Source: Acidobacteriota bacterium (lineage in GTDB: Bacteria > Acidobacteriota > Aminicenantia > Aminicenantales > Saccharicenantaceae). From it: a stretch of DNA of 64,000 nt. This document shows positions 2,179 to 51,072 of the stretch, one piece after another. The translations under genes and the position numbers were made by a program. The stretch lies in assembly GCA_033549365.1 (NCBI GenBank), contig JAWSUF010000002.1:286082-350081 (forward strand), in the 5' to 3' direction. Within the stretch, counting starts at the first letter, position 1. The number at the start of each line of letters is the position of its first letter. Below the pieces are notes generated by a model, which worked only from the letters and a program-made list of their open reading frames with translations, was not told the DNA's origin and did no database searches.

Positions 2179-2750
2179 CGGCCCGAAACCTCTCCCTTGT
2201 TCTGAGATGCGGCCCCGATCTCTTCGAGGCCGTTGCGAAGCGCCTGCTGTATCGCTCCGATCGTCGCCGGATCCGCCGGCGTTCCGCCGGCGTCACGCGG
2301 CAGGAAACGCGAACTGGAAAACGCGAACGCCCGTCCGTCGCGCCTGTGGCGGTACCGAAATTCGATTCCGGGATGGCCGAAGATGAGTATCATCAATGTT
2401 TCGGCCATTTTTGTCAAGGGTTGGCGGTCGATATGGGAATGGCGGAAGCGGGCGGTGATTTGCGTTCCCCGGCCCGGCTTCGAGTCGATTTTGATGTCGC
2501 CGCCGGCCTGGCGTGCGGCTTGGGCCAGGAGCGGCAATCCCAGGCCCGTCCGTTTGGCGCCGGTTGTGAAAAACGGATCGAGGGCTTGAGCGACGGTCTC
2601 TTCGGACATGCCCCGGCCGTTGTCGGCGACCCGAAGAACAAGAAGGTCGCGGGCTGAGTCCTCCCGAACGGAGATGGCGATGCGCGTCGCTCCGGCCGCG
2701 GCGGCGTTTTCGGCCAAGTCCATGACGTGGAAGGACAGATCTTCCATCAT
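2175..2750 (-). CDS. GHKL/HATPase_c-domain protein (histidine-kinase-like ATPase or Ser kinase of the hydrogenase regulatory module)
   Basis: N-box VADNGRGMSEE, G-boxes DPFFTTG and GLGLPL, then GTQITARF. It makes an ATGA overlap with the upstream PHP gene. Confidence 0.7.
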   Translation of the reverse strand: MMEDLSFHVMDLAENAAAAGATRIAISVREDSARDLLVLRVADNGRGMSEETVAQALDPFFTTGAKRTGLGLPLLAQAARQAGGDIKIDSKPGRGTQITARFRHSHIDRQPLTKMAETLMILIFGHPGIEFRYRHRRDGRAFAFSSSRFLPRDAGGTPADPATIGAIQQALRNGLEEIGAASQNKGEVSGR

Positions 2751-3481: not shown

Positions 3482-3822
3482 CAGGCTCCGCGAAGGCCGA
3501 GACCATGAAGGCGGCCGGCCAGTTCGAAGGCGCCGAGAGCGCTGCCGAGCAGCGGCAGCCCCTCCTTTTCGGCCCTCTGGACGGTCTCCGGTTCGGGAGT
3601 CCGGCCGCCGGAGATAACGACGCCCGCAAGATCCTTGAGGACGGCGACGGCGACGATATTGGGATGAATCTGAATGGTGATCCACAGAACATTCTCTCCG
3701 CCGCGGGCCATCACATCGCTCAGGAGGTCTCCGGCATAGCCGCTCTTGACGGCGCGTTGAAGCCCGTTCTCACCGGCGAAAACAGTGAGATCAAGCCGGG
3801 CAACCAGTTCGGCCAGGGTCAT
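3481..3822 (-). CDS. DRTGG-domain protein (small regulatory domain typical of [FeFe]-hydrogenase operons)
   Basis: About 113 aa from MTLAELVARLDLTVF..., including VVISGGRTPEPETV. Its stop overlaps the PHP start (TGATG), and its start overlaps the HydS stop (ATGA). Confidence 0.55.
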   Translation of the reverse strand: MTLAELVARLDLTVFAGENGLQRAVKSGYAGDLLSDVMARGGENVLWITIQIHPNIVAVAVLKDLAGVVISGGRTPEPETVQRAEKEGLPLLGSALGAFELAGRLHGLGLRGA

Positions 3823-34290: not shown

Positions 34291-35424
34291 ATGAAAGGGG
34301 CGAACGCTTTTCCGGAGTCGGTTCGAGAGAAAACGGATATGGTGACATCTGCAGCCCGTGAGCAACAGACTCTGTGGGGAATGCCGACGTTTCCTCAGCG
34401 AGTGTCGGAATATCCCCAGCTGCGTTACATGGGAAGCAAACATCGGCTTCTTCCCTGGATTCATGAGATCCTTTGGGGTCTCAAGTTCGACTCGGCGCTG
34501 GACGCGTTTTCCGGCAGCGGGTGTGTGGCCTACTTGCTCAAAGCGATGGGCAAGAAAGTCATGGCCAATGACTTTCTGTCCTTCGCATCGATCATTGCAG
34601 AGGCTGCAGTGGCCAATTCGGATCAACGCCTTTCGAGTGAGCATATCGAAATTCTTACGGCCGATAAAGTCTCGCGGGACCGATTCATAGAAAAAACCTT
34701 CAGCGGGATCTTCTTCGAATCAGGAGATTTGCGATTCCTTGACAATGTCTGGGCAAACCTGCCCGCTCTGCCTTCGGGACGGCTCCGGGCGCTGGCTTTG
34801 GCAGCACTTATTCGTTCCTGTTTGAAACGTCAACCTAGAGGAGTTTTCACCGTAGCGGATCCTGAGCGGTATAAGGATGGAAGGCGTGACCTGACGCTGA
34901 CCTTGGAGGAGCATTTCGTTGAGTCGGTGAAAGCCTTTAATCGCGCGGTCTTCGATAGCGGCCGTCCTTGCCGGGCGACCCGACGGGACATCTTCGAGAT
35001 TGAACCCCTTGGCTATGATTTGGTTTATATGGATCCTCCCTATGTCCCGCGAGCCGATGACAACTGTTACATCAAACGCTATCACTTTCTGGAGGGTTTG
35101 GCGACCTACTGGAAAGCTGAGGATGCGGAAATCCTTGAGACTTCGAAAGTCAAGAAGATCAAGAAGCGCTTCACTCCTTTCTCTTATCGACGTACGGCTC
35201 TGGCGGCCTTCGACCGGATGTTTTCCCGTTTCGGCTCGAGCATCCTTGTCCTGTCCTATTCATCCAACGGTTATCCGGACCTTGAGACATTGGTCTCGCT
35301 TATGAGGCGTTATAAAAGCAGCGTCAGAGTCTTTGAAACGGATCATCGCTATCATTTTGGGACACATCGCAATGTGTCCCCCGATAGAGCCGCGGTTCGG
35401 GAATACCTCATCGTCGGAGTCTAA
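34291..35424 (+). CDS. Dam-like N6-adenine DNA methyltransferase (D12 class, alpha group)
   Basis: RYMGSKHRLLPWI (the SAM-binding motif I that starts with YMGSK) and catalytic DPPY (YMDPPYVP). The start is 34291, 34339 or 34381. Confidence 0.8.
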   Translation: MKGANAFPESVREKTDMVTSAAREQQTLWGMPTFPQRVSEYPQLRYMGSKHRLLPWIHEILWGLKFDSALDAFSGSGCVAYLLKAMGKKVMANDFLSFASIIAEAAVANSDQRLSSEHIEILTADKVSRDRFIEKTFSGIFFESGDLRFLDNVWANLPALPSGRLRALALAALIRSCLKRQPRGVFTVADPERYKDGRRDLTLTLEEHFVESVKAFNRAVFDSGRPCRATRRDIFEIEPLGYDLVYMDPPYVPRADDNCYIKRYHFLEGLATYWKAEDAEILETSKVKKIKKRFTPFSYRRTALAAFDRMFSRFGSSILVLSYSSNGYPDLETLVSLMRRYKSSVRVFETDHRYHFGTHRNVSPDRAAVREYLIVGV

Positions 35425-36273
35425 ATGCAACTCAGGAAGGTCACCCTTGAAGAAATTCTTGGAGAGATTGAAGAGCTTCCTTCCGACTGGATGGATGAGA
35501 AAGCCCGGGCTTTAGAGTCGCTTATCAAACTTTCACTCGGGCGCCTGCGGGGGTTAAATCGTCCGGTGATGGCGGATGATTTATTGGCAGAGCTGCGCAC
35601 GGACCCAAGGTTTCTTGAGATCTGCCGGCTCTTCCTTGGCAAAGGTCAAGAACCGGCCGCTCATGTCTTCTGCGAGGCTCTCGGAGTGCGCGTCTCGTGG
35701 ACGAAACTGCAAGCCATGGCGCGACAGGAACCGGAGCGGTTGACCAAGGCACTCGATTCGCTAAAATTTCCTGAGCTTATCCAGAGTCACCTCGAACGCC
35801 GGTGGCAGGCTGAAGATATCTTGATTGAGCGCTACAAGATGAGTCGCGGTCGTGCAATAGCAGGACAGCGGCGAGGCCGTAGTCTCGAGGATGATGTGGC
35901 CGCAGTATTGAAGGAACTGCGGATCCCCTTCGACCGGGGTGTCTCCTTCCTTGGGAAAAGGGGAGCAACGGCCAAATGCGATTTTGCCATACCCGGTCGC
36001 GATCGTCCAAAAGTCGTCATCGAGGCCAAAGGATTCGAAGCCACCGGGAGCAAGTTGACGGACTTTATCGGCGACATCCTGAAAATTGCCCAAGCCAAAG
36101 ACTTTCATATGTATTTCTTCCTGGTCACCGACGGTCGTGGATGGCACAACCGCGTCAGTGATCTGCGAAAAATCGTTGAGTTCCACGATGAGAATCTGAT
36201 TGATATGATCTATACAAGGGTTCGCCTTTCCGACCTGGCTGTCGTAATACGACACATCTGGGAAAATGAGTAG
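35425..36273 (+). CDS. Putative type II restriction endonuclease (PD-(D/E)xK fold, DpnII/MboI-like) partnered with the Dam-like MTase
   Basis: It abuts the MTase stop directly. It has a candidate catalytic core D...VVIEAKG. GC is lower than the window average. Family membership is an inference from context, motif and size (282 aa). Confidence 0.5.
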   Translation: MQLRKVTLEEILGEIEELPSDWMDEKARALESLIKLSLGRLRGLNRPVMADDLLAELRTDPRFLEICRLFLGKGQEPAAHVFCEALGVRVSWTKLQAMARQEPERLTKALDSLKFPELIQSHLERRWQAEDILIERYKMSRGRAIAGQRRGRSLEDDVAAVLKELRIPFDRGVSFLGKRGATAKCDFAIPGRDRPKVVIEAKGFEATGSKLTDFIGDILKIAQAKDFHMYFFLVTDGRGWHNRVSDLRKIVEFHDENLIDMIYTRVRLSDLAVVIRHIWENE

Positions 36274-36324: not shown

Positions 36325-37902
36325 TTATCCCTTGAGGATCTTTTCGACCTCCTCCTTGTCCACGTCCGTGATGAAGGGGATGCCGCTGATATCGGCTGCG
36401 TCCCGGGTCAGGGCGGCGATGTCGTCCCGGCTGATGTAGCCGAGGTTGAACTTTCTCTCGCCGGCCATGAGCTGGCGCACGCCCTGACTGAGCCGTGTGA
36501 AGTAGCTGTAAACGCCCAGTGCCCCGGCCGGAATTTCATCGAACTTCTTTCCGAAACGATGACGCAGGTCGGGAGCCGTCACAAAGATCTCGTCGACCGT
36601 GGTGCCGAACCTTTCGACATAGACCGGGATTTGGCCTTCCTGGATCCGTTTGCCGATGGTTTTCCCGACCATGGCCGCGGCCAGGGCGCTTCGAGCCATG
36701 CCGATCGCCTTGACGTAAGGGGCGCCCATGGCGAGTGCCTTGAAGATCTGATCCTCGAAAGTGATTCCGCCGGCGAAAACGATGTCCGGCACGTATTCTC
36801 CGGCCTTGTCCAACATTTGGGCGTATTTGTGGGTCAGACTCCAGATTTCGACGCTGGGGATGCCCCATTCGTTCATCATCCGCCAGGGGCTCATACCTGT
36901 TCCGCCGCCGGCCCCGTCAACGGTCAGCATGTCGAGCTTGGCCTTGGAGGCGAATTTGACGGCCCGGGCCAGGTCGGCCGGTCGGTAGGCCCCCGTCTTG
37001 AGGAAGACGTACTTGGCGCCGGCCTTCCGCAGCTCCTCGACCCGCTTCATGAAGGATTCCTCCTCGACCATGCCGAGACGGGAATGCCGCTCGAATTCCT
37101 TGAAGGAGCCTTTCTTGAAGGCGGCGACGACGGCCGGATCCTCGGGATCGGGGAGCACGATGTAACCCCGTTTTTTCAGTTCCTGGGCTTTCTCGAGACT
37201 GTGGAGCTTGACCTCGCCTCCGATGTCCTTGGCGCCCTGTCCCCATTTAAGCTCGACGGCTTCGACCCCCAGTTTTTCGATGGCATATTCCTGAACGCCG
37301 AGCCGGGTGTCCTCGACGTTGGCCTGAACGACGACCGTCCCGTAGCCGTCGGACCATTTTTTGAAACTTCCGACACGCATCTCCATGTCCGCCGAACGGA
37401 CGATACGGCCCTTCTTGATTTCCGAATCCGGGTCCATGGCGCAGACGTTCTCGCCGACGGTCAGAATGACGCCCGAGATCGCGGCGCCTGCGGCCAGACC
37501 TTCCCAGTTCTGCTTGGCCACGTTGGTCGATCCCATGCCGGGGATGACAAAGGGCAGGCGGAGCTTGATGCCCTTGTCGCGGCCGATCGCCGTTTCGACG
37601 GAGACCTTTTCGAAGGTGGCGATGTCGCTGTCGGCGGCGACTCCCCAGGCTCCGACGGCCGTTCCCATGATGCTGAAGTGGGACAGGTCGACGGGGTACT
37701 CCTTTTCCGAGGCCGCCGTGATGATGCCGAAGGGCTGGGGATAGAGAACCTCGGCGCCCCGGTAGGCGGATTTTCCGATTTCGCACATCCCGATGCAGCC
37801 GTCGACGCAGGTCACGCACATGCCGCTGAATGGGCTGACCGATCCCTCGGTCCGGTTCTTGGTGAGCGTCGCCGCGCTCCGGTTGAGTCGTGTATAGGAC
37901 AT
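36325..37902 (-). CDS. Glutamate synthase large-subunit FMN-binding domain protein (archaeal-type GltB-like) with an N-terminal Cys cluster
   Basis: N-terminal CVTCVDGCIGMCEIG. FMN-domain motifs LTVDGAGGGTGMSP and FAGGITFEDQIFKALAMGA. Confidence 0.8.
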   Translation of the reverse strand: MSYTRLNRSAATLTKNRTEGSVSPFSGMCVTCVDGCIGMCEIGKSAYRGAEVLYPQPFGIITAASEKEYPVDLSHFSIMGTAVGAWGVAADSDIATFEKVSVETAIGRDKGIKLRLPFVIPGMGSTNVAKQNWEGLAAGAAISGVILTVGENVCAMDPDSEIKKGRIVRSADMEMRVGSFKKWSDGYGTVVVQANVEDTRLGVQEYAIEKLGVEAVELKWGQGAKDIGGEVKLHSLEKAQELKKRGYIVLPDPEDPAVVAAFKKGSFKEFERHSRLGMVEEESFMKRVEELRKAGAKYVFLKTGAYRPADLARAVKFASKAKLDMLTVDGAGGGTGMSPWRMMNEWGIPSVEIWSLTHKYAQMLDKAGEYVPDIVFAGGITFEDQIFKALAMGAPYVKAIGMARSALAAAMVGKTIGKRIQEGQIPVYVERFGTTVDEIFVTAPDLRHRFGKKFDEIPAGALGVYSYFTRLSQGVRQLMAGERKFNLGYISRDDIAALTRDAADISGIPFITDVDKEEVEKILKG

Positions 37903-37915
37903 TGTCGTTTACCTC

Positions 37916-38611
37916 CTAAGATTCCTTTTTCTTATCCTGATCCTGAACGCAGGTTCCGCAGCGGCCCGCGTCGTACATCCAGCACTGGAGATCCTCGTGG
38001 TGGTCGAGGCAGGTCGGATCCATGGTCAGACAGGCGTTGCAGAGCACGGTGTCCGCCGAAGGGCCCTGGCAGCGGAGCTGACAGACCGGGCAGATGTACA
38101 TGCAGGCGCCGCAGAGGCGGCACTCCTCCGAACGCATGTCGAACGGCGTCGAGATTTTTTTTTTGTAGCCGCGCTGCTGGAACCCGATGGCCCGGCCGTC
38201 CATCTGTTCGGCGCACATTCGGACACACAACCCGCACAGGATGCACTCCTCGTTGCGGGGGGTGAACCTCACCTGGGTGACGCCGAACTTGGAGGCCAGG
38301 TCCTGAAGCTGTTTCGACCCGGGGGCGACCGAAAGCATGAGCTCGATCATCATCCGCCGGGCGGCGATGACGCGCCGCGTGTCCGTCCGGACGACCAAGC
38401 CCGCCTCCGCCGGATAGGTGCAGGAGGACACCAGTTTGGCCCGCGGCCCCTCCCCGATCTCCACCACGCAGAGACGGCAGCCTCCGAAGGGCGTCAATCC
38501 GTCGTTGTGGCAGAGCGTCGGGATTTCGAGACCGTAGAATCGGGCGGTCTCCAGAAGAGTCCAGCCTTCCTCGGCCTTGACTTCCAAACCGTTGAGTATG
38601 AGGTCGATCAT
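37916..38611 (-). CDS. Ferredoxin with a NuoG/HydA-N-terminal-like [2Fe-2S] domain plus two [4Fe-4S] motifs
   Basis: From MIDLILNGLEV. CHNDGLTPFGGCRLC (2Fe-2S), CILCGLCVRMC and CRLCGACMYICPVC. Its ATGA overlaps the upstream stop. Confidence 0.75.
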   Translation of the reverse strand: MIDLILNGLEVKAEEGWTLLETARFYGLEIPTLCHNDGLTPFGGCRLCVVEIGEGPRAKLVSSCTYPAEAGLVVRTDTRRVIAARRMMIELMLSVAPGSKQLQDLASKFGVTQVRFTPRNEECILCGLCVRMCAEQMDGRAIGFQQRGYKKKISTPFDMRSEECRLCGACMYICPVCQLRCQGPSADTVLCNACLTMDPTCLDHHEDLQCWMYDAGRCGTCVQDQDKKKES

Positions 38612-41600
38612 ATTTCCCGTCCTGTGGCTTTTTTGCCGTCCTCGGTATCGAGCTCGCATCGAAGGCAACGGCGGGCTTCACGCACAGCCATGTCTTTCGT
38701 GAAACCCAGCTCGACCTCCTCGTGCCCGGTTCTTCTTTTCGCCGGGGAGAGGTGCGGCATCTTTTCCCGCTTGGCGTTCTGGGCTTCCTCTTCGGAAAGT
38801 TTGACCGGCGGGACATAAAGGCTGGGCCGCGTGAGGCTGTGTGTCCGGGGAATGATGCGGCCCTCCAGGTAATTTTCGATGGACCGCGCGGCCAGTTTGC
38901 CGGCGGCGATGGCGTCGACGACACTGCTCGGGCCCGTAACGACGTCGCCGCCCGCGAAAACTCCCGGTCGTGTCGTGGCCAGCGTGGCCGGATCCACGAT
39001 GATCGTTCCCCATTTCGAATCCAGGGTCAGGCCGTCGCTTTCTCTGAGGTAGGGCGTGTAGGCGCGTTCGCTGATGGCCAGAATCAGCGTGTCCGCCTTG
39101 GCTTGGAATTCGGATCCGGGCACGGGGACCGGGCGGGCCCGGCCGCTTTCGTCCCTTTCGCCGAGTTTCATCCGCAGGCATTCCACGCCGACGACCCGGT
39201 CGTTTTCGGTCCGGACCCGGATCGGTGCGACGAGAAATTGGATGTCGATGCCCTCTTCCAGGGCCGCTTCGACCTCTTCCGGGTAAGCCGGCATTTCTTT
39301 CCGGGTGCGCCGATAGAGCACGGTGACCTTTTTGACCTTTTTGTCCCGGAAGGCCACCCGCGCGGCGTCGACGGCCGAGTTGCCGCCGCCGATGACGACC
39401 ACTTCGGCGCCCAGGTTGACGGGGATGCCGAGATGGTGCTCTTTCAGGTATTCGAGGGATTGGAGAACGCCCTCGGCTTCCTCTCCCGGGACCCCGATTT
39501 CGATGGGTTTGTGGGCCCCGGTCGCCAGGAAAACGCATTGATAACCCTGTTGGAAAAGGTCGTCCAGGCTGAAGTCCTTGCCCAGCGTCATGTTGGTCTT
39601 GATGTTGAGACCGGATTTGACCAGGTAATCGATGTCGTGCTTCAGGATATCCTTGGGGAGACGGTGATCGGGGATCGTGACCTGGAGCATGCCGCCGGCG
39701 ACGGGGAGGGATTCGAAAATCCGGACCGGATAGCCTTTTGCGGCCAGAGCATAGCCGGCCGCGAGTCCGGCCGGTCCGGCACCGATAATGGCCACCTTTT
39801 CGCTTTTGGTGACCGGGAATTTCGGTGGGGAGTCGAGGCCGTTGGCCCGCCCCCAGTCCGTGACGAATCTCTTGATGGCCCGGATGGCGATGGGTTCGCC
39901 GATTTCGCCGGCCCGGCAGGACGACTCGCAGGTCCGGCTGCAGACCCGGCCGCAGACCGAGGGCAGGGGGTTGTCCTTGCGGATAATTTCGAAAGCTTCC
40001 TTGAACTTCTTTGCGGCCGTAAGGGCGATGTAAGTGGCGGCCTCCTGGTCGATGGGACATGTGTAGTGGCAGGGGGCGGAGACAATCTCCTTGCAGACCA
40101 TGGCCGGGCATTTTTTCTCGAGAACGTGTTTTTCGTATTCGTCCCGGAAATACTTGAGGGTGGAGAGAACGGGGTTGGCCGCCGTCTGACCGAGCCCGCA
40201 GAGGGAGGCGTCCTTGACCGCGGCGGCAAGTTCCTCGAGAACGGCGAGATCGGACGGCACGGCCCGGCCGTCCGTGACGGCCTTGACGATTTCGTACATG
40301 CGCCGGGTGCCTTCGCGGCAGGAGACGCATTTGCCGCACGATTCGTCCTGAAGGAAATTCAGAAAATACTTGGCGATGTCGACCATGCAGGTCTTGTCGT
40401 CCATGACGATCATGCCGCCCGAGCCCATGATGGAGCCGGCCTGGCTCAGGCTCTGGTAATCGATGGGCAGATCGAGCATTTCCTTGGGAATGCACCCTCC
40501 CGAAGGGCCTCCGGTCTGGACGGCCTTGAAGGCCCGGCCGCCGGGGATCCCGCCGCCGACATCGTAGATGATTTCCCGGAGGCTCATGCCCATCGGGACT
40601 TCGACGAGGCCGGTGTTGTTGATCTTGCCGACAAGCGAGAAGATCTTGGTGCCCTTGCTTCCGTCCGTTCCGATCCGGGCGAACCATTCGGCGCCCTTGT
40701 CGACGATGATGGGGACGGTTCCCCATGTTTCGACGTTGTTGATGTTGGTCGGCTTCTTCCAGAGGCCCTTCTGGGCCGGGAACGGCGGGCGCTGCCGCGG
40801 CTCGCCGACTTTGCCCTCGATGGAGGCGATGAGCGCGGTCTCCTCGCCGCAGACAAAGGCGCCGGCGCCCTTGGCGATAAGGATGTCGAAATCGAAGCCG
40901 GTGCCCAGGATGTTTTTTCCCAGAAGACCGAGCCGGTAAAGATCGGCGATGGCCAGGGAGACGTGCTTGACGGCCAGGGGATACTCGTCGCGGGCGTAGA
41001 TATAGCCCGTTCCGGCCCCGATGGCGTAGGCGCCGATCATCATGCCTTCGAGCACACGGTGCGGGTTCCCTTCGAGAAGACTGCGATCCATATAGGCGCC
41101 CGGGTCACCTTCATCGGCGTTGCAGATGACGTATTTGACGTCGCCTTTGGCCGCCCGGGCCAGTTCCCATTTGACTCCGGTGGGGAATCCGGCGCCGCCC
41201 CGGCCCCGAAGTCCCGATTCCTTGACGGCGGCGACGACCTCGTCGGGGGACATCCGGGTCAGGGCCTTGACAAACGTCCGGTATCCGCCGATCGCGAAAT
41301 AATCTTCGATCTGCGTTGGGTCGATCCGGGGATTGTCGCCGAGGACAATGCGTTTTTGCTTCTTATAGAAAGGGATGTCCGACTCCTTGGCGGCCTCAAT
41401 CCCGGTTTCGGGTTCCGTGTAAAGGAGTTTCTGAATGATTCTGTCGTTTTTGACGGTTTCCCTGACGATGGCCCGGCTGTCCCGCGGCTGCACTTTCTGG
41501 TAGAAGATATCCCGCGGAGTGATGATGATGTTGGGTTCGGCCTCGCAGAATCCGTGGCAGCCTGAAACCCGGACCTGAACGCGCTTTTGTAGGCGCAGAT

Positions 41601-41784
41601 CCTTGACGGCCCGGCCCAGAGCGGCGATGACTTTCAGCGAACCACGGGCCCGGCCGCATGTGCCGGCCGATACGGTGAGAACCGTTCGGGTGTCCGCCTT
41701 GCGGTCGCGGACGATCCCGTTCGCATAGGCCGTGAATTCCCGGGCGGTTTTGAACTTGGCCTCATGTTTCATGGCGCGTCTCAT
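38608..41784 (-). CDS. Fusion protein: NuoF/HydB-like NADH-FMN module (with an N-terminal thioredoxin-like 2Fe-2S domain and a C-terminal 2x4Fe-4S domain) fused to a GltD/NfnB-like FAD-NAD(P)H oxidoreductase domain
   Basis: GLRGRGGAGFPTGVKW and ESCGKCVSCREGT (51-kDa family). GltD-part Rossmann motifs VAIIGAGPAGLAAGYALAAKG and VVVIGGGNSAVDAARV. The true start MRRAM (41784) or MKHEAKF (41772) overlaps the NuoE stop. Confidence 0.85.
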   Translation of the reverse strand: MRRAMKHEAKFKTAREFTAYANGIVRDRKADTRTVLTVSAGTCGRARGSLKVIAALGRAVKDLRLQKRVQVRVSGCHGFCEAEPNIIITPRDIFYQKVQPRDSRAIVRETVKNDRIIQKLLYTEPETGIEAAKESDIPFYKKQKRIVLGDNPRIDPTQIEDYFAIGGYRTFVKALTRMSPDEVVAAVKESGLRGRGGAGFPTGVKWELARAAKGDVKYVICNADEGDPGAYMDRSLLEGNPHRVLEGMMIGAYAIGAGTGYIYARDEYPLAVKHVSLAIADLYRLGLLGKNILGTGFDFDILIAKGAGAFVCGEETALIASIEGKVGEPRQRPPFPAQKGLWKKPTNINNVETWGTVPIIVDKGAEWFARIGTDGSKGTKIFSLVGKINNTGLVEVPMGMSLREIIYDVGGGIPGGRAFKAVQTGGPSGGCIPKEMLDLPIDYQSLSQAGSIMGSGGMIVMDDKTCMVDIAKYFLNFLQDESCGKCVSCREGTRRMYEIVKAVTDGRAVPSDLAVLEELAAAVKDASLCGLGQTAANPVLSTLKYFRDEYEKHVLEKKCPAMVCKEIVSAPCHYTCPIDQEAATYIALTAAKKFKEAFEIIRKDNPLPSVCGRVCSRTCESSCRAGEIGEPIAIRAIKRFVTDWGRANGLDSPPKFPVTKSEKVAIIGAGPAGLAAGYALAAKGYPVRIFESLPVAGGMLQVTIPDHRLPKDILKHDIDYLVKSGLNIKTNMTLGKDFSLDDLFQQGYQCVFLATGAHKPIEIGVPGEEAEGVLQSLEYLKEHHLGIPVNLGAEVVVIGGGNSAVDAARVAFRDKKVKKVTVLYRRTRKEMPAYPEEVEAALEEGIDIQFLVAPIRVRTENDRVVGVECLRMKLGERDESGRARPVPVPGSEFQAKADTLILAISERAYTPYLRESDGLTLDSKWGTIIVDPATLATTRPGVFAGGDVVTGPSSVVDAIAAGKLAARSIENYLEGRIIPRTHSLTRPSLYVPPVKLSEEEAQNAKREKMPHLSPAKRRTGHEEVELGFTKDMAVREARRCLRCELDTEDGKKATGREI

Positions 41785-42245
41785 TTCTTGTACTTCTTCA
41801 GGATCGGGACGACCTTGCGCATGGAGGTATGGGCATGGTAGTCCTTGTCGACCACGACGACGGGACCGATGGCACAACACCCCAGGCAGGCCACGGTGTC
41901 CAGGGTGAATTGTCCGTCCTTGGTGGTCTGGCCCGGTTTCACCTTGAGCTGGCGCTCGAATTCGTCCAGGATCTTGGGACCTCCCCGGACATGGCAGGCC
42001 GTTCCCAGGCAAACCGTACAGGTGTGCTTCCCGCGAGGGGCCAGGCTGAAGGCCCGATAGAACGTCGCCACGCCGATGACATCGACGAGCGGAATGTTGA
42101 GCGCCTTGGCCACCTGTTTCAGACAGTCTCGGGGAAGATAGTTGTATTCCTCCTGGATGTCCTGCAGGATGGCGATGAGAGCTTTCTTGTTTCCGCCGTG
42201 TCTGTCGACGAGCGATTGAATTTTCGCCGTCTCTACACGCAACAT
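41781..42245 (-). CDS. NuoE-like [2Fe-2S] ferredoxin subunit
   Basis: CTVCLGTACHVRGG ... CLGCCAIGP. Confidence 0.8.
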   Translation of the reverse strand: MLRVETAKIQSLVDRHGGNKKALIAILQDIQEEYNYLPRDCLKQVAKALNIPLVDVIGVATFYRAFSLAPRGKHTCTVCLGTACHVRGGPKILDEFERQLKVKPGQTTKDGQFTLDTVACLGCCAIGPVVVVDKDYHAHTSMRKVVPILKKYKK

Positions 42246-42481
42246 TCACCTCCGGATTGAAAGATTAGTATCGTAAAAATCGGATGGTCCGTGTATCGGC
42301 CGGCGGCCGGCCGGGGCCCCGGGGTCTTGGAGGGAGCGGCGGATAATGATAATATGACTTGCTCCTCGCACCCATCGAGCCGGAGGTGCGAAAATAAATA
42401 CAGAAACGGTTTATACCAGAGAAAAAGAGCTGTTGTCAAGAAGAATGCAACAAAGAATGCCGTTTGTCCGCTAAAGGTGTC

Positions 42482-43144
42482 ATGAAAAAGCTGTATGTCA
42501 CGCCCGAGACGATCGAGAGTCGAAGCCGGGACTTTCTGAGGGAATATTCCGGCCTGCAACCGGCTCGGCCCCCCGGTTTTGATTTTCTTCGCTCGGCCCT
42601 CCTGGTTTTGGACATGCAGCGCGTCTTTATGGACCCATCCTCCCACGCCTATATCCCGAGTGCCCCGGCTGTTATTCCCCGAATCAGGGCTCTGGCCGAG
42701 GCCTATGAAATCCGCAATCGGCCGGCGATTTTCACACGCCATGTCAACACGCCGGAGGATGCCGGCCGCATGGCGGACTGGTGGAGAAACAGAATCGCCC
42801 CCGACAACCCCTTGTCGGCGCTGATTCCCGAATTCCACAGGCCTTCGGACCGGGTCATCCTCAAGAGCCGTTACGATGCGTTTTTCCGGACGCCGCTCGA
42901 GGAGATGTTGCGCGGCGGCGGCGTCGACCAGGTGGTGATCTGCGGTGTGATGACGCACCTGTGCTGCGAGACGACGGCCCGGTCCGCCTTCATGCGCGGT
43001 TTTGATGTTTTCTTCACTGTGGACGGAACGGCCACGTATACGGAAGCTTTCCATCGGGCCAGCCTTCTCAACCTGGCCCATGGTTTTGCCGTCTTGACCC
43101 TGTCGGAGACGATCCTGGAGGCTGCGAGAGGCGATGAAGGTTGA
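42482..43144 (+). CDS. Isochorismatase-family (cysteine hydrolase) protein
   Basis: ALLVLDMQRVF...VVICGVMTHLCCETTARSA (catalytic Cys in the conserved VICG...C context). The start is 42482 (MKKLYV) or 42464. Confidence 0.65.
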   Translation: MKKLYVTPETIESRSRDFLREYSGLQPARPPGFDFLRSALLVLDMQRVFMDPSSHAYIPSAPAVIPRIRALAEAYEIRNRPAIFTRHVNTPEDAGRMADWWRNRIAPDNPLSALIPEFHRPSDRVILKSRYDAFFRTPLEEMLRGGGVDQVVICGVMTHLCCETTARSAFMRGFDVFFTVDGTATYTEAFHRASLLNLAHGFAVLTLSETILEAARGDEG

Positions 43145-44024
43145 ACCCGTGGCCGTTATCGGAGCCGGTCCGGCCGGGCTTGCGGCCGCCATGCAACTGG
43201 CCCGCATGGGGATATCCGCAAGGCTTTTGGAACGGGCCGATCCGGGCGGGTTGCTTCTGAATGCTCATTGGGTCGAGAATTATCCCGGGTTTCCGGACGG
43301 CCTGTCCGGCCCCGATCTCGTCCGCTTAATGCGGCGCCATGCCGAAAGTTTCGGCGCCGTTCTGACGAAGGATGAGATTGTCTCGATCGTGGACGAAGAC
43401 AAGGTTTTCCGGATCAAAGGCCGCGCCCGGAATTACCTGGCCCGCAGGATCGTTTTGGCCTCGGGAACAAAAGCCCGGGGGCCGGCCGGATGCGAAATTC
43501 CTCCGGAGATGGAGGGCCGCATCCACACCGAAGTCGTCGCCCTGCGCGAGGCCTCGGGTCTTCGGATTGCCGTTGTCGGAGCGGGCGATGCGGCTTTCGA
43601 CTATGCCATCGGTCTTTCGGAAAGGAATGATGTGACTCTCTTGAAACGCAGCGCCGGCGTCCGGTGCCTGTCTCTCCTCCGGGAAAGGGCCGCAAAAAAC
43701 GCATGCATCGACATCCGAAATCATGTGAACGTCCTCCGCCTGGCCCCGGTGCCGTCCGGCGGCGCATCTGTTTGCGGAACGTGGAAGGGAAGCGATTTCC
43801 GTCTGGACGTCGATGCCGTGATCTTCGCCGTCGGCCGCGATCCGGAGACGGGCTGTCTTTCTCGCGAACTTCTTGAAAACATCCCGGTGCTTCGCGCATC
43901 CGGCCGGCTTTTTCCGGCGGGGGACATCCATAACGGCCTCTGCCGGCAGGCCTCGATCGCCGCGGGAGACGGAATCCGGGCGGCCATGGAAATCCACAGG
44001 CTCATGAAGGAGGCCGGAGAATGA
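43134..44024 (+). CDS. FAD/NAD(P)-binding oxidoreductase (thioredoxin-reductase-like fold)
   Basis: Two dinucleotide motifs, VAVIGAGPAGLAAA and IAVVGAGDAAFDYA. Confidence 0.7.
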   Translation: MKVEPVAVIGAGPAGLAAAMQLARMGISARLLERADPGGLLLNAHWVENYPGFPDGLSGPDLVRLMRRHAESFGAVLTKDEIVSIVDEDKVFRIKGRARNYLARRIVLASGTKARGPAGCEIPPEMEGRIHTEVVALREASGLRIAVVGAGDAAFDYAIGLSERNDVTLLKRSAGVRCLSLLRERAAKNACIDIRNHVNVLRLAPVPSGGASVCGTWKGSDFRLDVDAVIFAVGRDPETGCLSRELLENIPVLRASGRLFPAGDIHNGLCRQASIAAGDGIRAAMEIHRLMKEAGE

Positions 44025-44974
44025 AAATCCTGGCTGCCGCGGGAACCGAGGATGTGGCCATGGTCTACATCGCCGATATCGGAGACGGACGCAAAATCGA
44101 GCTGGTCGAATCCGTTCAGCCGCCGATTCCGCGCCTCAGGAAATGGGTGCTTCTGATTTCCACGCTGTGCGGCTGTCCGATCGGGTGTGCGATGTGCGAC
44201 GCCGGAGGCGGTTATCAGGGTCTTCTTTCCAAGGACGAGATTCTGGCCCAGATCGATTTTCTGGTCCGCCGCCGTTATCCCGACGGACATGTCCCGTGCG
44301 AGCAGTTCAAGATCCAATTCGCCCGCATGGGGGAACCGGCGCTCAATCCGGCCGTGCTCGATGTCTTGGACGAACTGCCGTCGCGTTTGGACGCTCCCGG
44401 TCTTATGCCGTCTCTATCGACGATCGCCCCGGCCGGTGCAGAAGACTTTTTCGAAGCCCTGATCGACATCAAGCGCCGCCGTTATGCCGGGGGGCGTTTC
44501 CAGTTCCAGTTTTCCATCCATTCCACGGACGCGGCTTGGCGGGGCAAACTGATTCCCGCGAAGACGTGGAGCTTCTCCGAGATGGCCGCCTACGGACGCC
44601 GCTTTTTCGCTCCGGGCGACCGGAAGATCGTTCTCAATTTCGCCCTGCCGCGGGAAGCTCCGGTCGATCCCGCAATCCTGAAGGACCACTTCGATCCGGA
44701 ACTTTTTCTAATCAAGATCACGCCCCTCAACCCGACCTATCGAGCTCGCGACAACCGTCTTGCGTCCGCAGTCGATCCGGATGCCCCCGAGGCCGATGCG
44801 GCGGCGGCCGACTTCCTGCGTGCGGCCGGCTACCGGGTGATTGTGAGCGTCGGGGAAGCCGAGGAAAACCAAATCGGCAGCAATTGCGGGCAATATCTAC
44901 GCCGCCACCTGGAAAGCCCGGCCCCCCTGGCCGACGGCTATTCTTACCCTCCGTTGCTTGGCTTCGATAAGTAA
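44021..44974 (+). CDS. Radical SAM protein with an RlmN/Cfr-like core
   Basis: CGCPIGCAMC (Cx3Cx2C) and the MGEPALNP motif, which resembles the RlmN GEP motif. It is shorter than RlmN. Confidence 0.5.
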   Translation: MKILAAAGTEDVAMVYIADIGDGRKIELVESVQPPIPRLRKWVLLISTLCGCPIGCAMCDAGGGYQGLLSKDEILAQIDFLVRRRYPDGHVPCEQFKIQFARMGEPALNPAVLDVLDELPSRLDAPGLMPSLSTIAPAGAEDFFEALIDIKRRRYAGGRFQFQFSIHSTDAAWRGKLIPAKTWSFSEMAAYGRRFFAPGDRKIVLNFALPREAPVDPAILKDHFDPELFLIKITPLNPTYRARDNRLASAVDPDAPEADAAAADFLRAAGYRVIVSVGEAEENQIGSNCGQYLRRHLESPAPLADGYSYPPLLGFDK

Positions 44975-47756: not shown

Positions 47757-49250
47757 TTGGCGCCTCGTGTTGAATCGTATTGCCGCCTAAGGTATGATTT
47801 CCGGGAATTGAAAACGATCTCATCCCTATGTCCGGAATGCCGAAAAGTGGTCGAGGCCCGGGTTTATCTGGACGGCGGGCGGATTCTGCTCGACAAGACG
47901 TGCCCCCGCCACGGCCGTTTTCAGGATGTCTATTGGTCCGATTCCCGGCAGTTCGAAAGGTTCGAGTCGTTTCGCCATGAGGGCGAAGGCATCGAGAACC
48001 CGCGGACTCGGGAAGACCGCGGCTGTCCTCTCGACTGCGGCCTCTGTCCCGGCCATAAATCCACCACCCTTTTGGCGATCGTGGATGTGACCAACAGATG
48101 TAACCTCCGCTGCCCCGTCTGCTTCGCGAATTCCGGGGTCCGCGGTTATGTCTACGAACCGACCCGGGATCAAATCCGGGCCATGCTGGAAAACGTCCGC
48201 AACAACCGGCCCCTGCCGACCCCGGCGCTGCAGTTTTCCGGAGGAGAGCCGACTCTCAGGCCCGACCTGGCCGACCTCGTGGCCATGGCCCGGGACCTCG
48301 GTTTCCTGAATATCGAGGTCAACACCAACGGGATCCGGCTGGCCGAAAGCCTCGATTTATGCCGAAGTCTGAAGGATGCCGGTCTGCATACGGTCTATCT
48401 TCAGTTCGACTCGCCGGATGCCGAGGTTCATCGCCGCATACGGGGCCGGGACCTTGTCGAAATCAAAAGACAGGCGATCGAGAACTGCCGCCGGGCGGAG
48501 ATCCCCAGCGTTGTACTGGTCGTCACCCTGATCAAAGGCGTGAATGACGGGCATCTCGGAGAGATCATCCGCTATGCGGCCCAAAACCGCGACATCATCC
48601 GCTGCGTCAACATTCAACCGGTGGCCTTCACCGGACGGAGGCCTGACGAAGCGGACCGGACCGGGCGCATCACGATCCCGGATGTTCTGGCCCTTGTCGA
48701 GGAGCAGACACAGGGCGACATCCGGGCCTCGGATTTTTATCCGGTGCCAAGCGTCGTTCCCGTCGCCAAGGCCGTCGGCGCTCTGAAGGGCGAGGTTTTT
48801 CCCGAGTTCACCGCCCATCCCCACTGCGGCGCCGGCACTTATTTTTTTGTCGAAGACGGCCGGATCACGGCGATCAACCGGCACGTGAATGTGAATAAAT
48901 TTCTCCGTTCCCTGGGGCGCATATCACGAACGGCCGCGAAAGGATATCGGAGCTTGGCGGGCCTGATGCTCCTTTTCTCTCTCCGCCATGTCAAGATCGG
49001 CATGTTGAGGAGATTTCTTCTGCCCATTTTAAGAATGGGAACGTTTGAGGCCCTGGCCGATTTCCACTTCAAGGTCGTGCTGGTTTCCTGCATGCATTTC
49101 ATGGATGCCTGGAATTTCGACGGGGAGCGTGTGCGGCGCTGCGTCATTCATTATGCCGTCCCGGACGGCCGGATCATCCCCTTCTGCGCCTACAACAATC
49201 TCGGCTACCGGGATGAGGTGGAGCATGCCTTCAAAACCGTCCGTGATTGA
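47757..49250 (+). CDS. Radical SAM enzyme with an N-terminal rubredoxin/Zn-ribbon-like Cys4 module and an extra CxxxCxxC cluster; candidate tetraether/membrane-spanning-lipid synthase (Tes/GDGT-MAS/Mss-like)
   Basis: CPEC...CPRHG, then CPLDCGLCPGH, then the canonical rSAM motif IVDVTNRCNLRCPVCFANSG and FSGGEPTL. About 480-497 aa. There is no in-frame ATG near the 5' end, so the start is probably TTG at 47757 or 47808. Confidence 0.55.
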   Translation: MAPRVESYCRLRYDFRELKTISSLCPECRKVVEARVYLDGGRILLDKTCPRHGRFQDVYWSDSRQFERFESFRHEGEGIENPRTREDRGCPLDCGLCPGHKSTTLLAIVDVTNRCNLRCPVCFANSGVRGYVYEPTRDQIRAMLENVRNNRPLPTPALQFSGGEPTLRPDLADLVAMARDLGFLNIEVNTNGIRLAESLDLCRSLKDAGLHTVYLQFDSPDAEVHRRIRGRDLVEIKRQAIENCRRAEIPSVVLVVTLIKGVNDGHLGEIIRYAAQNRDIIRCVNIQPVAFTGRRPDEADRTGRITIPDVLALVEEQTQGDIRASDFYPVPSVVPVAKAVGALKGEVFPEFTAHPHCGAGTYFFVEDGRITAINRHVNVNKFLRSLGRISRTAAKGYRSLAGLMLLFSLRHVKIGMLRRFLLPILRMGTFEALADFHFKVVLVSCMHFMDAWNFDGERVRRCVIHYAVPDGRIIPFCAYNNLGYRDEVEHAFKTVRD

Positions 49251-49986
49251 ACGCCTGAGGGACCGCCGGGAGGTCCTGCATTTCACGTTGATCGATCCCG
49301 ACAGCCAAACCCCCAAGCGGCTGGCCGAAGTCGTTCGGATGTGTTGCCGGTTCGGCACGGATGCCTTCATGGTCGGCGGGTCCGGTCCTTTCGGACGGCG
49401 CCGGCTGGAAACCGCCCTGAAGACGATCCGCAAACATACGGACCGGCCCGTCATTCTGTTTCCGAACTCCGCCGAATCCGTATCCCGGCACGCGGACGAA
49501 ATATTTTTCATGTCGCTTCTCAACTCCCGCGGATCTCGGTTTCTGATCGGCGAGCAAGTTCGGGCTGCCGCCGCTGTAAAAAGGGCCGGCCTCCGCCCGA
49601 TTTCCATGGCCTATATCGTTGTCGGCACGAGCCGGAAGCCGACGACCGTGGAAAAGAAGGTCAGACTGGAAGCCATCGGAAGTTGCGATGTTCGAAAAGC
49701 CAGGGACTATGCGCTCGCGGCCGAATATCTCGGAATGAGCTGTGTCTATCTTGAGGCGGGATCGGGCGCGGACAAGCCCGTGCCGCCGCGGATGATCCGG
49801 GCCGTGAGGGGGGAAATCTCGGTGCCTCTCATTGTTGGTGGAGGCATCCGCAGCCCGCGCCGGGCCCTCCAAACGGCGGAAGCCGGCGCCGACGCCGTCG
49901 TCACCGGCACGATCGTCGAGCGGGATCCGGCCCGTCTCGAAGCCATCATCCGGACCATCAAAGCGTTCCGGCCCGGCCGTCGATAA
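49225..49986 (+). CDS. Geranylgeranylglyceryl phosphate synthase family protein (GGGPS/PcrB)
   Basis: LHFTLIDPD, FMVGGS, YLEAGSGA and PLIVGGGIRS motifs of the (beta/alpha)8 GGGPS/PcrB family. Start is ATG 49225 or GTG 49243, overlapping the end of the upstream rSAM gene. Confidence 0.8.
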   Translation: MPSKPSVIERLRDRREVLHFTLIDPDSQTPKRLAEVVRMCCRFGTDAFMVGGSGPFGRRRLETALKTIRKHTDRPVILFPNSAESVSRHADEIFFMSLLNSRGSRFLIGEQVRAAAAVKRAGLRPISMAYIVVGTSRKPTTVEKKVRLEAIGSCDVRKARDYALAAEYLGMSCVYLEAGSGADKPVPPRMIRAVRGEISVPLIVGGGIRSPRRALQTAEAGADAVVTGTIVERDPARLEAIIRTIKAFRPGRR

Positions 49987-51072
49987 ATGGCGAAGGGAAC
50001 GACGATATCCGGCTTTTTATCTCTCATCCGGCTTCCCAACGGTTTGATCGCCGTTTTATCGACGGTGATGGCCGGCGTCGTGACCGCCCGGTCCTTCGAT
50101 ATCCGGCCCGCGGTTTTTCTCGGGGCCGGGATCGTCTGGCTCATCCTTTCGGGAGGAAACGCCCTCAATGATTTTTTTGATCGCCATATCGACAAGGTGA
50201 ACAGGCCGCGGAGGCCGATTCCTTCGGGTCGGATCACCGGCCGGCAGGCCGTCGTTTTCTCCTGGATTCTGCTTTCGCTGGGTCTGGGGCTGAGCCTGGC
50301 TCTTGGCCTCAAAGTCGCGGCCTTCGCCGCCGCGAACATCCTGATTCTTGTCATCTATGCCCGTTGGTCCAAGTCCCTGGGTCTGCTCGCCAATCTCGCG
50401 GTCGGCTGGCTGACGGCATCGGTCTTTCTCTTCGCTGCGATCATTCAGGGACATCCGGATGTCAATATCCTGGCCTTGAGCCTGAGCGCGTTTTTCATTA
50501 TGACATCGAGAGAAATCCTCAAGGACATCGAGGATATGGAAGGTGACAGGGAAGGAGGCGCGGCGGCGACCCTGCCGATCCGCGTCGGTCCGGGCCGGGC
50601 GCGAACGGCGGCCGTTCTGGCGGCTCTTCCCGCGGTTCCCCTGATTGTTCTTCCGTCCTTGAATCTGGGGATGAACGTTCTTTTCCCGGTTTTCGCCGTT
50701 CCCGCCGCCGCAACCGTCGTTTATTCCTTCTTTCCGAATCCGCGTGCGGCCCAGAGGTCGATCAAAATCGCCGTGATTCTGGTTCTCCTGGCCTATGTCT
50801 TCGGTGTCTTGTCGACGGACAAGAGAAGCCGAGGCTCAGGACATGAGGTATTTGACGGCGTAACGGGCGAGATCGGTGGCGTTTTTCGTCAGGATTTTCG
50901 TTATCCCGGCAAAAGATCCCCGGGAAAGATCGTCCAGTGTCTCTCCCGAGATCAGCCGGGCGAGGCGATTCAGGTCCGTGTCGGAGAGACGTTCGTGGAA
51001 TGTGTTGAGCTTGAGCATCCGCGCCGTTTTCCGGCCGTGTTGCGCTTTCCAGAGCGTTTCATAACGGCTTAA
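49987..51072 (+). CDS. UbiA-family prenyltransferase; digeranylgeranylglyceryl phosphate synthase (DGGGPS)-like
   Basis: NALNDFFDRHIDKVNRPRRPIPSGRI (the first Asp-rich UbiA motif), a second motif at REILKDIEDMEGD, and 8-9 TM helices. The last 75 aa or so (past about 50830) overlap the convergent GGR gene and look like stop-less read-through. Confidence 0.75.
   Translation: MAKGTTISGFLSLIRLPNGLIAVLSTVMAGVVTARSFDIRPAVFLGAGIVWLILSGGNALNDFFDRHIDKVNRPRRPIPSGRITGRQAVVFSWILLSLGLGLSLALGLKVAAFAAANILILVIYARWSKSLGLLANLAVGWLTASVFLFAAIIQGHPDVNILALSLSAFFIMTSREILKDIEDMEGDREGGAAATLPIRVGPGRARTAAVLAALPAVPLIVLPSLNLGMNVLFPVFAVPAAATVVYSFFPNPRAAQRSIKIAVILVLLAYVFGVLSTDKRSRGSGHEVFDGVTGEIGGVFRQDFRYPGKRSPGKIVQCLSRDQPGEAIQVRVGETFVECVELEHPRRFPAVLRFPERFITA

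Follow-up and report, generated by a model that had tools for sequence, protein, structure and literature searches.

Organization of the operon

The window analysed here is a stretch of 64,000 nucleotides from an Acidobacteriota bacterium (contig JAWSUF010000002.1, positions 286,082 to 350,081), with a G+C content of ~60%. At positions 36325-42245 it carries four tightly coupled genes on the minus strand, which were delimited by open reading frames (ORFs) and domain scans (Table 1). They encode a NuoE-like subunit, a NuoF-GltD fusion, a small ferredoxin and a TIM-barrel protein of the flavin mononucleotide (FMN) type, referred to below as the FMN protein. The operon probably represents an undescribed route from low-potential electrons to glutamate or ammonia metabolism, organized around an enzyme core of the Bfu type.

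Pfam and NCBIfam scans placed the ORFs and domains where the original prediction, made from the nucleotide sequence alone, had put them. The four genes had been described as overlapping. This is correct for the nuoE/nuoF and the nuoF-gltD/ferredoxin junctions, each of which has a 4-nt ATGA overlap; the ferredoxin and FMN genes, however, are parted by a 13-nt spacer containing a GGAGG ribosome binding site. A GGAGG ribosome binding site also lies directly 5′ of the nuoE gene. Reading of the sequence revealed a putative promoter ~165 nt 5′ of the nuoE ATG, in which TTGACA is separated by 18 nt from TGGTATAAA; this site was missed by the consensus scanner because the last base of the -10 element is A. 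Consensus scans of the operon detected neither an internal sigma-70-type promoter nor a coding-strand terminator, and a search of the window and the nuoE leader for riboswitches and other Rfam families was negative.

Table 1. Positions in the window of the four genes, the two halves of the fusion and the promoter-like site.
Feature	Position	Strand	Evidence
BfuC / NuoE-like thioredoxin-like [2Fe-2S] subunit, 154 aa	41781-42245	-	PF01257, 169 bits
NuoF-GltD fusion, 1058 aa	38608-41784	-	Pfam domains, NCBIfam
BfuB / NuoF-like half, aa 1-559	40108-41784	-	PF01512, PF10589, PDB matches
GltD/NfnL-like half, aa 560-1058	38608-40107	-	PF14691, 88 bits; PF07992, 112 bits
Small BfuA, WorA-like, NuoG-N-terminal-like ferredoxin, 231 aa	37916-38611	-	PF13510 (Fer2_4) and Fer4 families
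FMN TIM-barrel protein, 525 aa, catalytic candidate	36325-37902	-	PF01645, 63.6 bits
Promoter-like site: TTGACA (42439-42434), 18-nt spacer, TGGTATAAA with -10 at 42415-42410	42410-42439	-	Sequence reading

Conservation of the four-gene order

Relatives of the FMN protein were sought in one genome per species, and more than 590 were found. Eighty loci, all from different species, were fetched and their gene order was determined by tblastn with the window proteins; in 69 of them no contig end interrupts the operon, which makes them informative. Of these 69 loci, 68 have NuoE, NuoF, the small ferredoxin and the FMN protein in this order and, because the same order recurs so consistently, the four-gene arrangement is far beyond chance. 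The conservation across relatives proposed as a check on the original prediction thus extends over many phyla and into the archaea. The bacterial hosts belong to the Aminicenantes, Zixibacteria, Planctomycetota, Firmicutes, Acetothermia, Latescibacteria, KSB1, Ignavibacteria and Actinomycetota, the archaeal ones to Methanoperedens, ANME-1/Methanophagales and Thermoplasmatota, and they are mostly sediment anaerobes. The identity of the FMN proteins to the window protein ranges from 68 to 84% across the loci and is ~70% between bacteria and archaea. The presence of the operon in at least 590 species-level genomes, together with this cross-domain identity, points to a strongly constrained function and to lateral spread.

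The GltD half is fused to NuoF in 40 of the 68 orthologous operons and missing in the other 28 (41%), whereas the FMN protein is always there. Both forms coexist among the Aminicenantes-like loci, where the FMN protein is 81-84% identical to the window protein whether GltD is fused or not. Because GltD comes and goes across the loci, the conserved unit consists of NuoE, NuoF, the small ferredoxin and the FMN protein; GltD is an exchangeable end module and not a core part. The combination of NuoEF with GltD, which had been likened to the Stn transhydrogenase, is therefore not the essence of the system.

Several variations on this organization were observed. Second FMN-protein paralogues (48-60% identity) lie beside the same NuoEF-ferredoxin set in loci L027 (4129-5706), L032 (5024-6604, minus strand) and L080 (12192-13772), and L052 (2444-9911) contains a tandem NuoE-NuoF/GltD set followed by NuoE-NuoF-Fd-Fd-FMN (Fd, ferredoxin). 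In L075 (5237-6085) and in similar Zixibacteria and Planctomycetota loci, NuoE is 282 aa long and has a Cys-rich, zinc-ribbon-like C-terminal extension. In six loci (L015, L021, L022, L030, L031 and L040) a gene for a HydS-like [FeFe]-hydrogenase-like sensor is found between nuoE and nuoF, and the same gap also holds PHP, DRTGG and histidine-kinase-like ATPase genes. Similar sets of regulator genes occur in some HydABC operons; by analogy, the HydS-like insertions would hint at descent from a hydrogenase operon.

A Bfu-type core with a fused GltD domain

The match of the NuoE-like subunit to PF01257 covers the full-length profile, and the NCBIfam model NuoE PRK07539.1-2 gave 146 bits (cutoff 141). 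The protein carries the Cys-x4-Cys ... Cys-x3-Cys motif of the C1 [2Fe-2S] site that is looked for in BfuC. The NuoF half of the fusion contains the Complex1_51K and NADH_4Fe-4S domains at aa 187-553 and matches TIGR01959 with 498 bits over aa 156-554, which corresponds to a full NuoF. It is laid out as an N-terminal thioredoxin-like domain, the FMN/NADH site, the B1 [4Fe-4S] site and the B2 site. The closest PDB chain is 7t2r_B (NiFe-HydABCSL, E 2e-216); further matches are 7q4v_B and 8a6t_B (HydABC), 9mqx_B (WorABCSL, 651 bits), 8oh5_B (Stn), and 9n5u_B and 9bov_B (Nfn-Bfu).

The B2 site is composed of His553 and Cys559-Pro-Ala-x-Val-Cys564, and H553, C559 and C564 are invariant in an alignment of six fused and unfused orthologues. 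A His followed by Cys-Pro-x-x-x-Cys in the linker is typical of Bfu B subunits and absent from non-bifurcating homologues (PMC12018979). The B5 thioredoxin-like domain is also present; in the window and in L007 it has Ser-x3-Cys in place of the Cys-x4-Cys seen elsewhere, so that three of the four usual cysteines are kept. A B5 site that contains Zn is compatible with bifurcation in the T. sibiricus Nfn (PMC12018979). The B3/B4 ferredoxin-like domain is not found in the window BfuB, where the Fer4_20 domain of GltD, which also has two [4Fe-4S] sites, replaces it. The 28 unfused operons encode a BfuB whose C-terminus is a classical 2x[4Fe-4S] ferredoxin-like domain. As the alignment shows, both forms share the His553 ... 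Cys564 motif that precedes the point of exchange.

In the GltD half, Fer4_20 and Pyr_redox_2 were located at aa 560-962, within a GltD/NfnL-type module spanning aa 560-975. This half contains two [4Fe-4S] sites, the Rossmann folds for FAD and NAD(P)H, and a C-terminal tail with a CxxC motif. It matches StnC (8oh5_C) and NfnA (9n5u_A, 9bov_A) at their residues ~102-567. The resemblance of the NuoEF part to the Stn and Nfn-Bfu enzymes was thus correctly recognized at the outset and holds for both halves of the fusion. The likeness does not extend to the position of GltD, which in Stn and NfnABC lies within a NuoG-like subunit and here sits on the C-terminus of NuoF.

The small BfuA

The third protein contains a [2Fe-2S] site (Cys34/45/48/64), two CxxCxxCxxxC motifs at aa 123-133 and 164-174, and a Cys-rich C-terminal tail (Cys177-221); it has no His-ligated N5-type cluster and no catalytic domain. 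The 12 cluster cysteines do not vary among 73 orthologues, and 7-8 of the tail cysteines hardly do. Its closest solved relative is WorA (9mqx_A, E 2e-39), with which it shares the A1, A2 and A4 sites. WorA is a type 2 BfuA, which has only the A1 [2Fe-2S], A2 and A4 clusters plus a C-terminal zinc-finger element; in WorABCSL a separate catalytic module docks on it and feeds the A4-A2-A1-B1 chain.

The FMN TIM-barrel protein

The PF01645 match of the 525-aa protein is well above the cutoff of 20.4 bits and is restricted to aa 278-398, against profile positions 185-302 of 369. Across 30 members of the family, the best Pfam family was PF01645 in 23, with IMPDH found for 10 and FMN_dh for 7; the relative P0210 covers PF01645 profile positions 57-305. 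The family is compact: 1142 sequences were retrieved at E<1e-3, and 184 at E<1e-30, among 1.84 billion 50%-identity representatives, and the close relatives fill more than 8000 90%-identity clusters. The databases give them generic names such as 'FMN-binding glutamate synthase family protein' or 'glutamate synthase domain-containing protein 2'. The window protein is matched at 100% identity by a protein from an Acidobacteriota/Aminicenantes metagenome-assembled genome. The motifs of the family are GENV, QxNVED, ELKWGQGAK, ERHSR, KTGAY, DGAGGGTGMSP and AGG..ED, and the window protein has ELKWGQGAK224 (QGAK at nt 37231-37242), ERH273SR and DGAGGGTGMSP. An N-terminal Cys29-x2-Cys32-x3-Cys36-x3-Cys40 motif (nt 37783-37818) is also conserved in the family.

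A sequence search of the PDB with the FMN protein alone gave no match, and an hhalign comparison of the family with a GltS fragment aligned only the FMN-phosphate half. An AlphaFold2 model (mean pLDDT 83, pTM 0.85, with low confidence in the N-terminal 70 residues) predicts a (beta/alpha)8 barrel with a subdomain inserted between beta4 and beta5. With Foldseek, the GltS structures 1ofd_A, 1ea0_A and 7mfm_G gave the highest TMq among the hits (0.47-0.48, 16-18% identity), as compared to 0.42-0.46 at 12-15% identity for oxidases. By eye, the barrel motifs are collinear with those of Synechocystis GltS: VELKWGQGAK224 corresponds to LEIKMAQGAK972, GGGTGMSP to DGGTGASP, and Lys244/Arg245 to Arg992/993. 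Gln969-Gly-Ala-Lys972 and Arg992 are active-site residues of GltS. The beta6 motif GGGTG occurs as well in GltS, in type-2 isopentenyl-diphosphate isomerase (IDI-2) and in IMPDH. We conclude that the FMN protein forms a separate branch of the FMN TIM-barrel superfamily, whose nearest sequence relatives, though remote ones, are the synthase domains of glutamate synthases; it is at most a putative member of the GltB-domain family in the strict sense.

Four other assignments were considered. An FMN-dependent 2-hydroxy-acid oxidase or dehydrogenase (PF01070) was not supported when judged by the family profile together with His-Gly-Gly-Arg on beta6, and for a type-2 isopentenyl-diphosphate isomerase the TIGR02151 equivalog score was not reached. 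Two were rejected: an N-methylglutamate synthase (MgsABC), since genes resembling MgsA or MgsB are lacking and the hosts live anaerobically, and a membrane GltB2 homologue of the YerD kind, since PF01645 is matched only in part.

Neighbouring genes of nitrogen metabolism

Every ORF of 110 aa or more on either side of the operon in the 80 loci was included in a clustering, and representatives of selected recurrent clusters were scanned against NCBIfam or Pfam. The gene for glutamate dehydrogenase (GDH), gdhA, was found in 16 loci from at least 8 phyla plus archaea, upstream or downstream of the operon and on either strand. Type-I glutamine synthetase (GS), glnA, was found in 14 loci; it lies upstream on the same strand in the Aminicenantes and 93-105 nt downstream in the Thermoplasmatota. 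An NtrC-type sigma-54 response regulator occurs in 16 loci, in 11 of them with a sensor kinase. Altogether, gdhA or glnA is present within 10 kb of the operon in 27 of the 80 loci, and gdhA, glnA or an NtrC-type regulator in 40. In one archaeal locus the genes read PPDK_N/receiver, gdh, nuoE, nuoF-gltD, fd, FMN, glnA and HTH; in one Acetothermia locus gdh stands on both sides of the operon, on the same strand. In several loci a sigma-54-like element lies just 3′ of the regulator gene, for example TGGCACGACAATTGCC in L075; in loci of this type a small Cys-rich ORF and this element are located between the NtrC-type regulator gene and nuoE.

A Pfam tally was made with one sampled flanking ORF on each side per locus (131 ORFs). 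The commonest family was ELFV_dehydrog (15), followed by Peptidase_M50 (8), which is lineage synteny, Gln-synt (6), PPDK_N (6) and Sigma54_activat (3). Together with the counts within 10 kb, this is independent evidence for the link to glutamate suggested in the original prediction. A motif search of the 1770 flanking ORFs of the 80 loci detected neither a class-II amidotransferase N-terminus nor a GXGXG motif, and both families are missing from the top 25 listed for the neighbouring ORFs in Pfam. tblastn, with a probe validated against PDB GltS, found no canonical gltB in the window or the 80 loci. The early remark that no amidotransferase is seen nearby therefore holds for the window proteins and for all these ORFs.

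A PPDK_N-domain protein of ~985 aa recurs in 8 loci of different phyla. Proteins of ~985-1030 aa with PPDK_N as their only domain are encoded in L001 (2359-5352), L012 (2218-5436), L046 (6554-9799), L063 (11678-13972), L070 (11627-14581) and L076 (11657-13432), and the archaeal L065 has a comparable gene that includes a receiver domain (914-4012), two genes away from the operon. This neighbour may be a dedicated regulator or kinase.

The relative P0210 (L081, 4355-10403) is an 800-aa fusion of 2x[4Fe-4S], FrhB (F420-binding) and an FMN525-like domain. Its gene is preceded by gdh, a small ferredoxin gene and a second gdh, with PylB/PylC/PylD-like genes upstream. Since gdh thus stands beside an FrhB-fused protein that has no Bfu core, the link with GDH follows the FMN protein and not the Bfu core. 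The neighbours of four distant relatives (P0128, P0131, P0150 and P0163) were uninformative, their contigs being short or the gene lying at the contig edge.

Proposed wiring and alternative explanations

The sequences and their homology to solved complexes together point clearly to a predicted Bfu-type BC core, a WorA-like connector, a separate FMN/Fe-S catalytic subunit and a GltD domain at the B3/B4 position. We are confident of the architecture taken by itself, a complex of the type-2 Bfu kind in which the FMN protein is the catalytic subunit. The FMN/[4Fe-4S] TIM-barrel subunit would take the place that a hydrogenase, a formate dehydrogenase or a tungsten enzyme has in other complexes. From the solved relatives, electrons would pass from the substrate to the FMN of the 525-aa subunit and to its N-terminal Cys4 cluster, then along A4-A2-A1 of the WorA-like subunit to B1 and to the bifurcating FMN and NAD(H) site of BfuB. 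The mobile [2Fe-2S] domain of the NuoE-like subunit would carry the low-potential branch. In solved Bfu enzymes this branch runs from the mobile NuoE-type C1 domain through B3/B4 to ferredoxin. The unfused enzymes would likewise deliver it through their B3/B4 ferredoxin-like domain to ferredoxin, whereas in the window enzyme it would lead to the two [4Fe-4S] clusters, the FAD and the NAD(P)H site of the GltD/NfnL-like domain, so that NADP(H) may replace or supplement ferredoxin as third partner.

Glutamate and ammonia metabolism is the best reading for the third substrate. The neighbours and motifs suggest a chemistry in which 2-oxoglutarate and free ammonia, as 2-iminoglutarate, would be converted to L-glutamate without a glutaminase, with electrons from NADH together with a low-potential donor. 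Our preferred reading, a tentative one to which we give slightly less than an even chance, is therefore a soluble four-subunit type-2 BfuABC (HydABC-like) enzyme whose FMN catalytic subunit reduces 2-iminoglutarate to L-glutamate. It would assimilate ammonia in the manner of a 'glutamate synthase', strongly driven and independent of ATP, and would work beside GDH and GS. The fully specified version, an amidotransferase-free bifurcating 'glutamate synthase' that uses NADH and reduced ferredoxin (or NADPH when GltD is fused) with 2-oxoglutarate and ammonia, is doubtful.

Several observations weigh against the reduction of 2-iminoglutarate. The family profile retrieved spurious de novo TIM barrels from the PDB, and GltS only at E = 0.12; the pairwise alignment to Synechocystis GltS is not significant (z ~3.5, with 1 of 200 shuffles scoring higher). 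The Cys-x5-Cys-x4-Cys motif for the 3Fe-4S cluster that follows beta8 in GltS (Cys1137/1143/1148 in Synechocystis) is absent, the corresponding stretch AIGMARSALAAAMVGK having no Cys. Pfam detected no class-II amidotransferase or GXGXG domain in the four proteins, and no such partner was seen in the window or in the 80 loci, which excludes a classical GOGAT. No gdhA, glnA or full NtrC-type regulator gene lies near the operon in the window, where a sensor kinase and a receiver-domain match ~27 kb away are the only such genes; because of this, the functional link to glutamate is transferred from the orthologues. The substrate would thus be assigned from gene neighbourhood and from a weak similarity of motifs, and an ammonia-dependent reaction would duplicate that of GDH, whose gene is often next door. 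Energetically, the 2-oxoglutarate + NH4+/glutamate couple has a standard potential of ~-130 mV, which is far from the ~-400 mV at which characterised Bfu enzymes have their 'mid-potential' third substrates; it shifts toward ~-280 mV or lower when ammonia is micromolar to millimolar and glutamate is high. With NADH and a low-potential donor coupled to it, the assimilation of ammonia would become strongly exergonic and need no ATP. Reduction of ferredoxin driven by NADH, with a high-potential organic acceptor, would however be equally allowed on these energetics, and this is the main rival.

In this alternative, the same Bfu-type complex would act on another small molecule, such as a 2-oxo/2-hydroxy acid pair (for instance 2-oxoglutarate/2-hydroxyglutarate), another imine or an activated C=C bond. 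NADH oxidation would be bifurcated to the higher-potential organic acceptor and to ferredoxin or NADP+, and energy would be conserved in amino-acid fermentation. The nearly invariant Arg-His pair of ERHSR has no GltS counterpart in the alignment, a neighbouring GDH would supply 2-oxoglutarate to hosts that live mostly as sediment anaerobes, and an acceptor at -100 to -200 mV would suit NADH-driven reduction of ferredoxin. Conversely, beta6 carries GGGTG and not the His-Gly-Gly-Arg of 2-hydroxy-acid oxidases, the Pfam assignments favour Glu_synthase over FMN_dh (23 versus 7 of 30 members), no 2-hydroxyglutaryl-CoA dehydratase or CoA-transferase genes recur among the neighbours of the 80 loci, and the adjacency of glnA and of NtrC-type regulators is left unexplained. 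We regard another substrate as possible, though unlikely.

A true glutamine-dependent split GOGAT of the archaeal or clostridial type, with its amidotransferase and GXGXG genes elsewhere and the Bfu core replacing GltD as electron input, would account for the glnA genes directly upstream or downstream of the operon in Aminicenantes and Thermoplasmatota loci. Split GOGATs, however, normally keep the amidotransferase and GXGXG genes together, and neither feature was seen in the 1770 flanking ORFs; the FMN protein also fails to give most of the PF01645 match obtained with real GltB2 proteins. There are precedents in the C. thermocellum split cluster Clo1313_2032-2036, which lies beside glnA and whose GOGAT activity was not measured in vitro (PMC9888227), and in the putative F420-dependent glutamate synthases proposed to use FrhB modules (PMC9012536). 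On balance this explanation appears quite improbable.

We consider it slightly less probable still that the core does not bifurcate and is a plain NADH (and NADPH) dehydrogenase module feeding the FMN subunit, as in non-bifurcating HydAB or in NAD-dependent Fdh/Hox. Bifurcation is not provable from sequence signatures, the window B5 has three of the four usual cysteines and the fused form keeps no obvious ferredoxin-like domain. Nevertheless, the published non-bifurcating homologues are devoid of B2-B5 (PMC9304861, PMC12018979), and the Zn-containing B5 of the T. sibiricus Nfn is still compatible with bifurcation. Finally, a Stn/NfnABC-like transhydrogenase of NADH, reduced ferredoxin and NADP+, with the FMN protein as an accessory or independent enzyme, is very unlikely despite the strong matches of the NuoE, NuoF and GltD parts to StnABC and NfnABC chains, since GltD is absent from 28 of the 68 orthologous operons while the FMN protein is in all, GltD is attached to BfuB and not to BfuA, and BfuA is non-catalytic, so that unfused complexes deprived of the FMN protein would have no third-substrate site.

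Bfu-type enzymes are central to the energy conservation of anaerobes, and the natural swap of a ferredoxin-like for a GltD domain on BfuB offers a direct comparison for the rewiring of the low-potential branch; if the proposed wiring is true, the choice of low-potential partner would depend on this swap. Should 2-oxoglutarate plus ammonia be the third substrate, as in the reading preferred here, the operon would represent a new ATP-independent nitrogen assimilation in sediments and digesters. Energy-starved anaerobes, archaea included, would then gain nitrogen assimilation with a high driving force and without the ATP cost of GS-GOGAT, and the 'glutamate synthase' annotations in metabolic models based on metagenome-assembled genomes would need a different reading.

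Genes flanking the operon in the window

The window and the other Aminicenantes loci have no flanking genes in common. On the 3′ side, a gene for a D12-class N6-adenine methyltransferase followed by one for a DpnII-like restriction endonuclease (34291-36273, plus strand) converges on the end of the operon. The G+C content of this DpnII-type pair is 0.52-0.55, as compared to ~0.60 for the window, and it probably is a laterally acquired restriction-modification island. Other Aminicenantes loci have an M50 peptidase, TrpRS and ScpAB at that position, none of which is present in the window. Divergently from the operon promoter, positions 42464-44974 (plus strand) contain a gene of the isochorismatase family (cysteine hydrolase/amidase-type), an overlapping gene for a thioredoxin-reductase-like flavoprotein and a 317-aa ORF that has no Pfam match; none of the neighbour clusters that recur in the 80 related loci corresponds to this neighbourhood. 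Further on, a radical-SAM protein with an HMPTM zinc ribbon, a PcrB-family (GGGP-synthase-like) protein and a UbiA prenyltransferase are encoded in a row (47757-51072, plus strand). This set resembles archaeal-type ether-lipid genes, yet the genome is bacterial.

Comparison with known systems

The Bfu classification of Schut et al. (2022) distinguishes Hyd, Fdh, Nfn, F420, Wor, Bam, Codh, Por, Mbh, Nuo and Rub types, and the third substrates in it are hydrogen, formate, NADPH, F420, aldehydes, CO, pyruvate, quinone and peroxide. It makes no mention of a glutamate synthase or of an FMN TIM-barrel module, and its supplement has no 'glutamate' entry. In the literature that could be searched in full text, no glutamate-synthase-like enzyme linked to Bfu or NuoEF is described.

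The closest counterpart is the type-2 Bfu enzyme WorABCSL of Acetomicrobium mobile (PDB 9MQX). Both have a BfuBC core and a small BfuA with A1, A2, A4 and a Cys-rich C-terminal element, on which a separate catalytic module docks. In WorABCSL this module is a tungstopterin aldehyde oxidoreductase with a polyferredoxin nanowire, whereas the window operon has in its stead a single FMN TIM-barrel protein bearing one Cys4 motif at the N-terminus, and the window BfuB has a GltD domain in place of B3/B4. StnABC and NfnABC (PDB 8OH5, 9BOV, 9N5U) likewise combine a BfuBC core with a GltD/NfnL-like FAD-NADPH domain and its two [4Fe-4S] clusters. In those enzymes, however, GltD is part of the mid-potential branch as an insertion in the NuoG-like A subunit, while here it occupies the C-terminus of BfuB at the low-potential B3/B4 position, is dispensable and is accompanied by a fourth catalytic subunit that is always present. 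The window system is thus related to Stn and is not a Stn-type member.

With glutamate synthase (Fd-GltS 1OFD, NADPH-GltS 1EA0/6S6S and the B. subtilis GltAB-GudB complex 7MFM) the system shares the logic of an FMN TIM barrel, an Fe-S cluster and a GltD-type NADPH module, as well as the association with glnA and gdhA, which is seen in the orthologous loci and not in the window. In contrast, it has no amidotransferase, central or GXGXG domain, the N-terminal Cys4 motif replaces the 3Fe-4S motif, a third of the Pfam profile is matched, and electrons would enter via a NuoEF-type core. FGltS, a putative F420-dependent enzyme (FrhB-GltB) of methanogens and ANME that has been proposed and is uncharacterised, also places a GltS-like FMN module on a different electron-input module, and P0210 is exactly such a fusion; there the input is F420H2/FrhB and not a Bfu core. 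In the Group F hybrid [FeFe]/[NiFe] hydrogenases of Thermoplasmatota, a NuoF-like HydB with a GltA/GltD-type domain has been reported (Cell 2024, PMC11216029), but the catalytic partners are hydrogenase subunits instead of an FMN TIM-barrel protein. The window operon is therefore classed as encoding a type-2 Bfu enzyme that is new, relative to the known Bfu enzymes, in its catalytic module and in its BfuB-GltD architecture.

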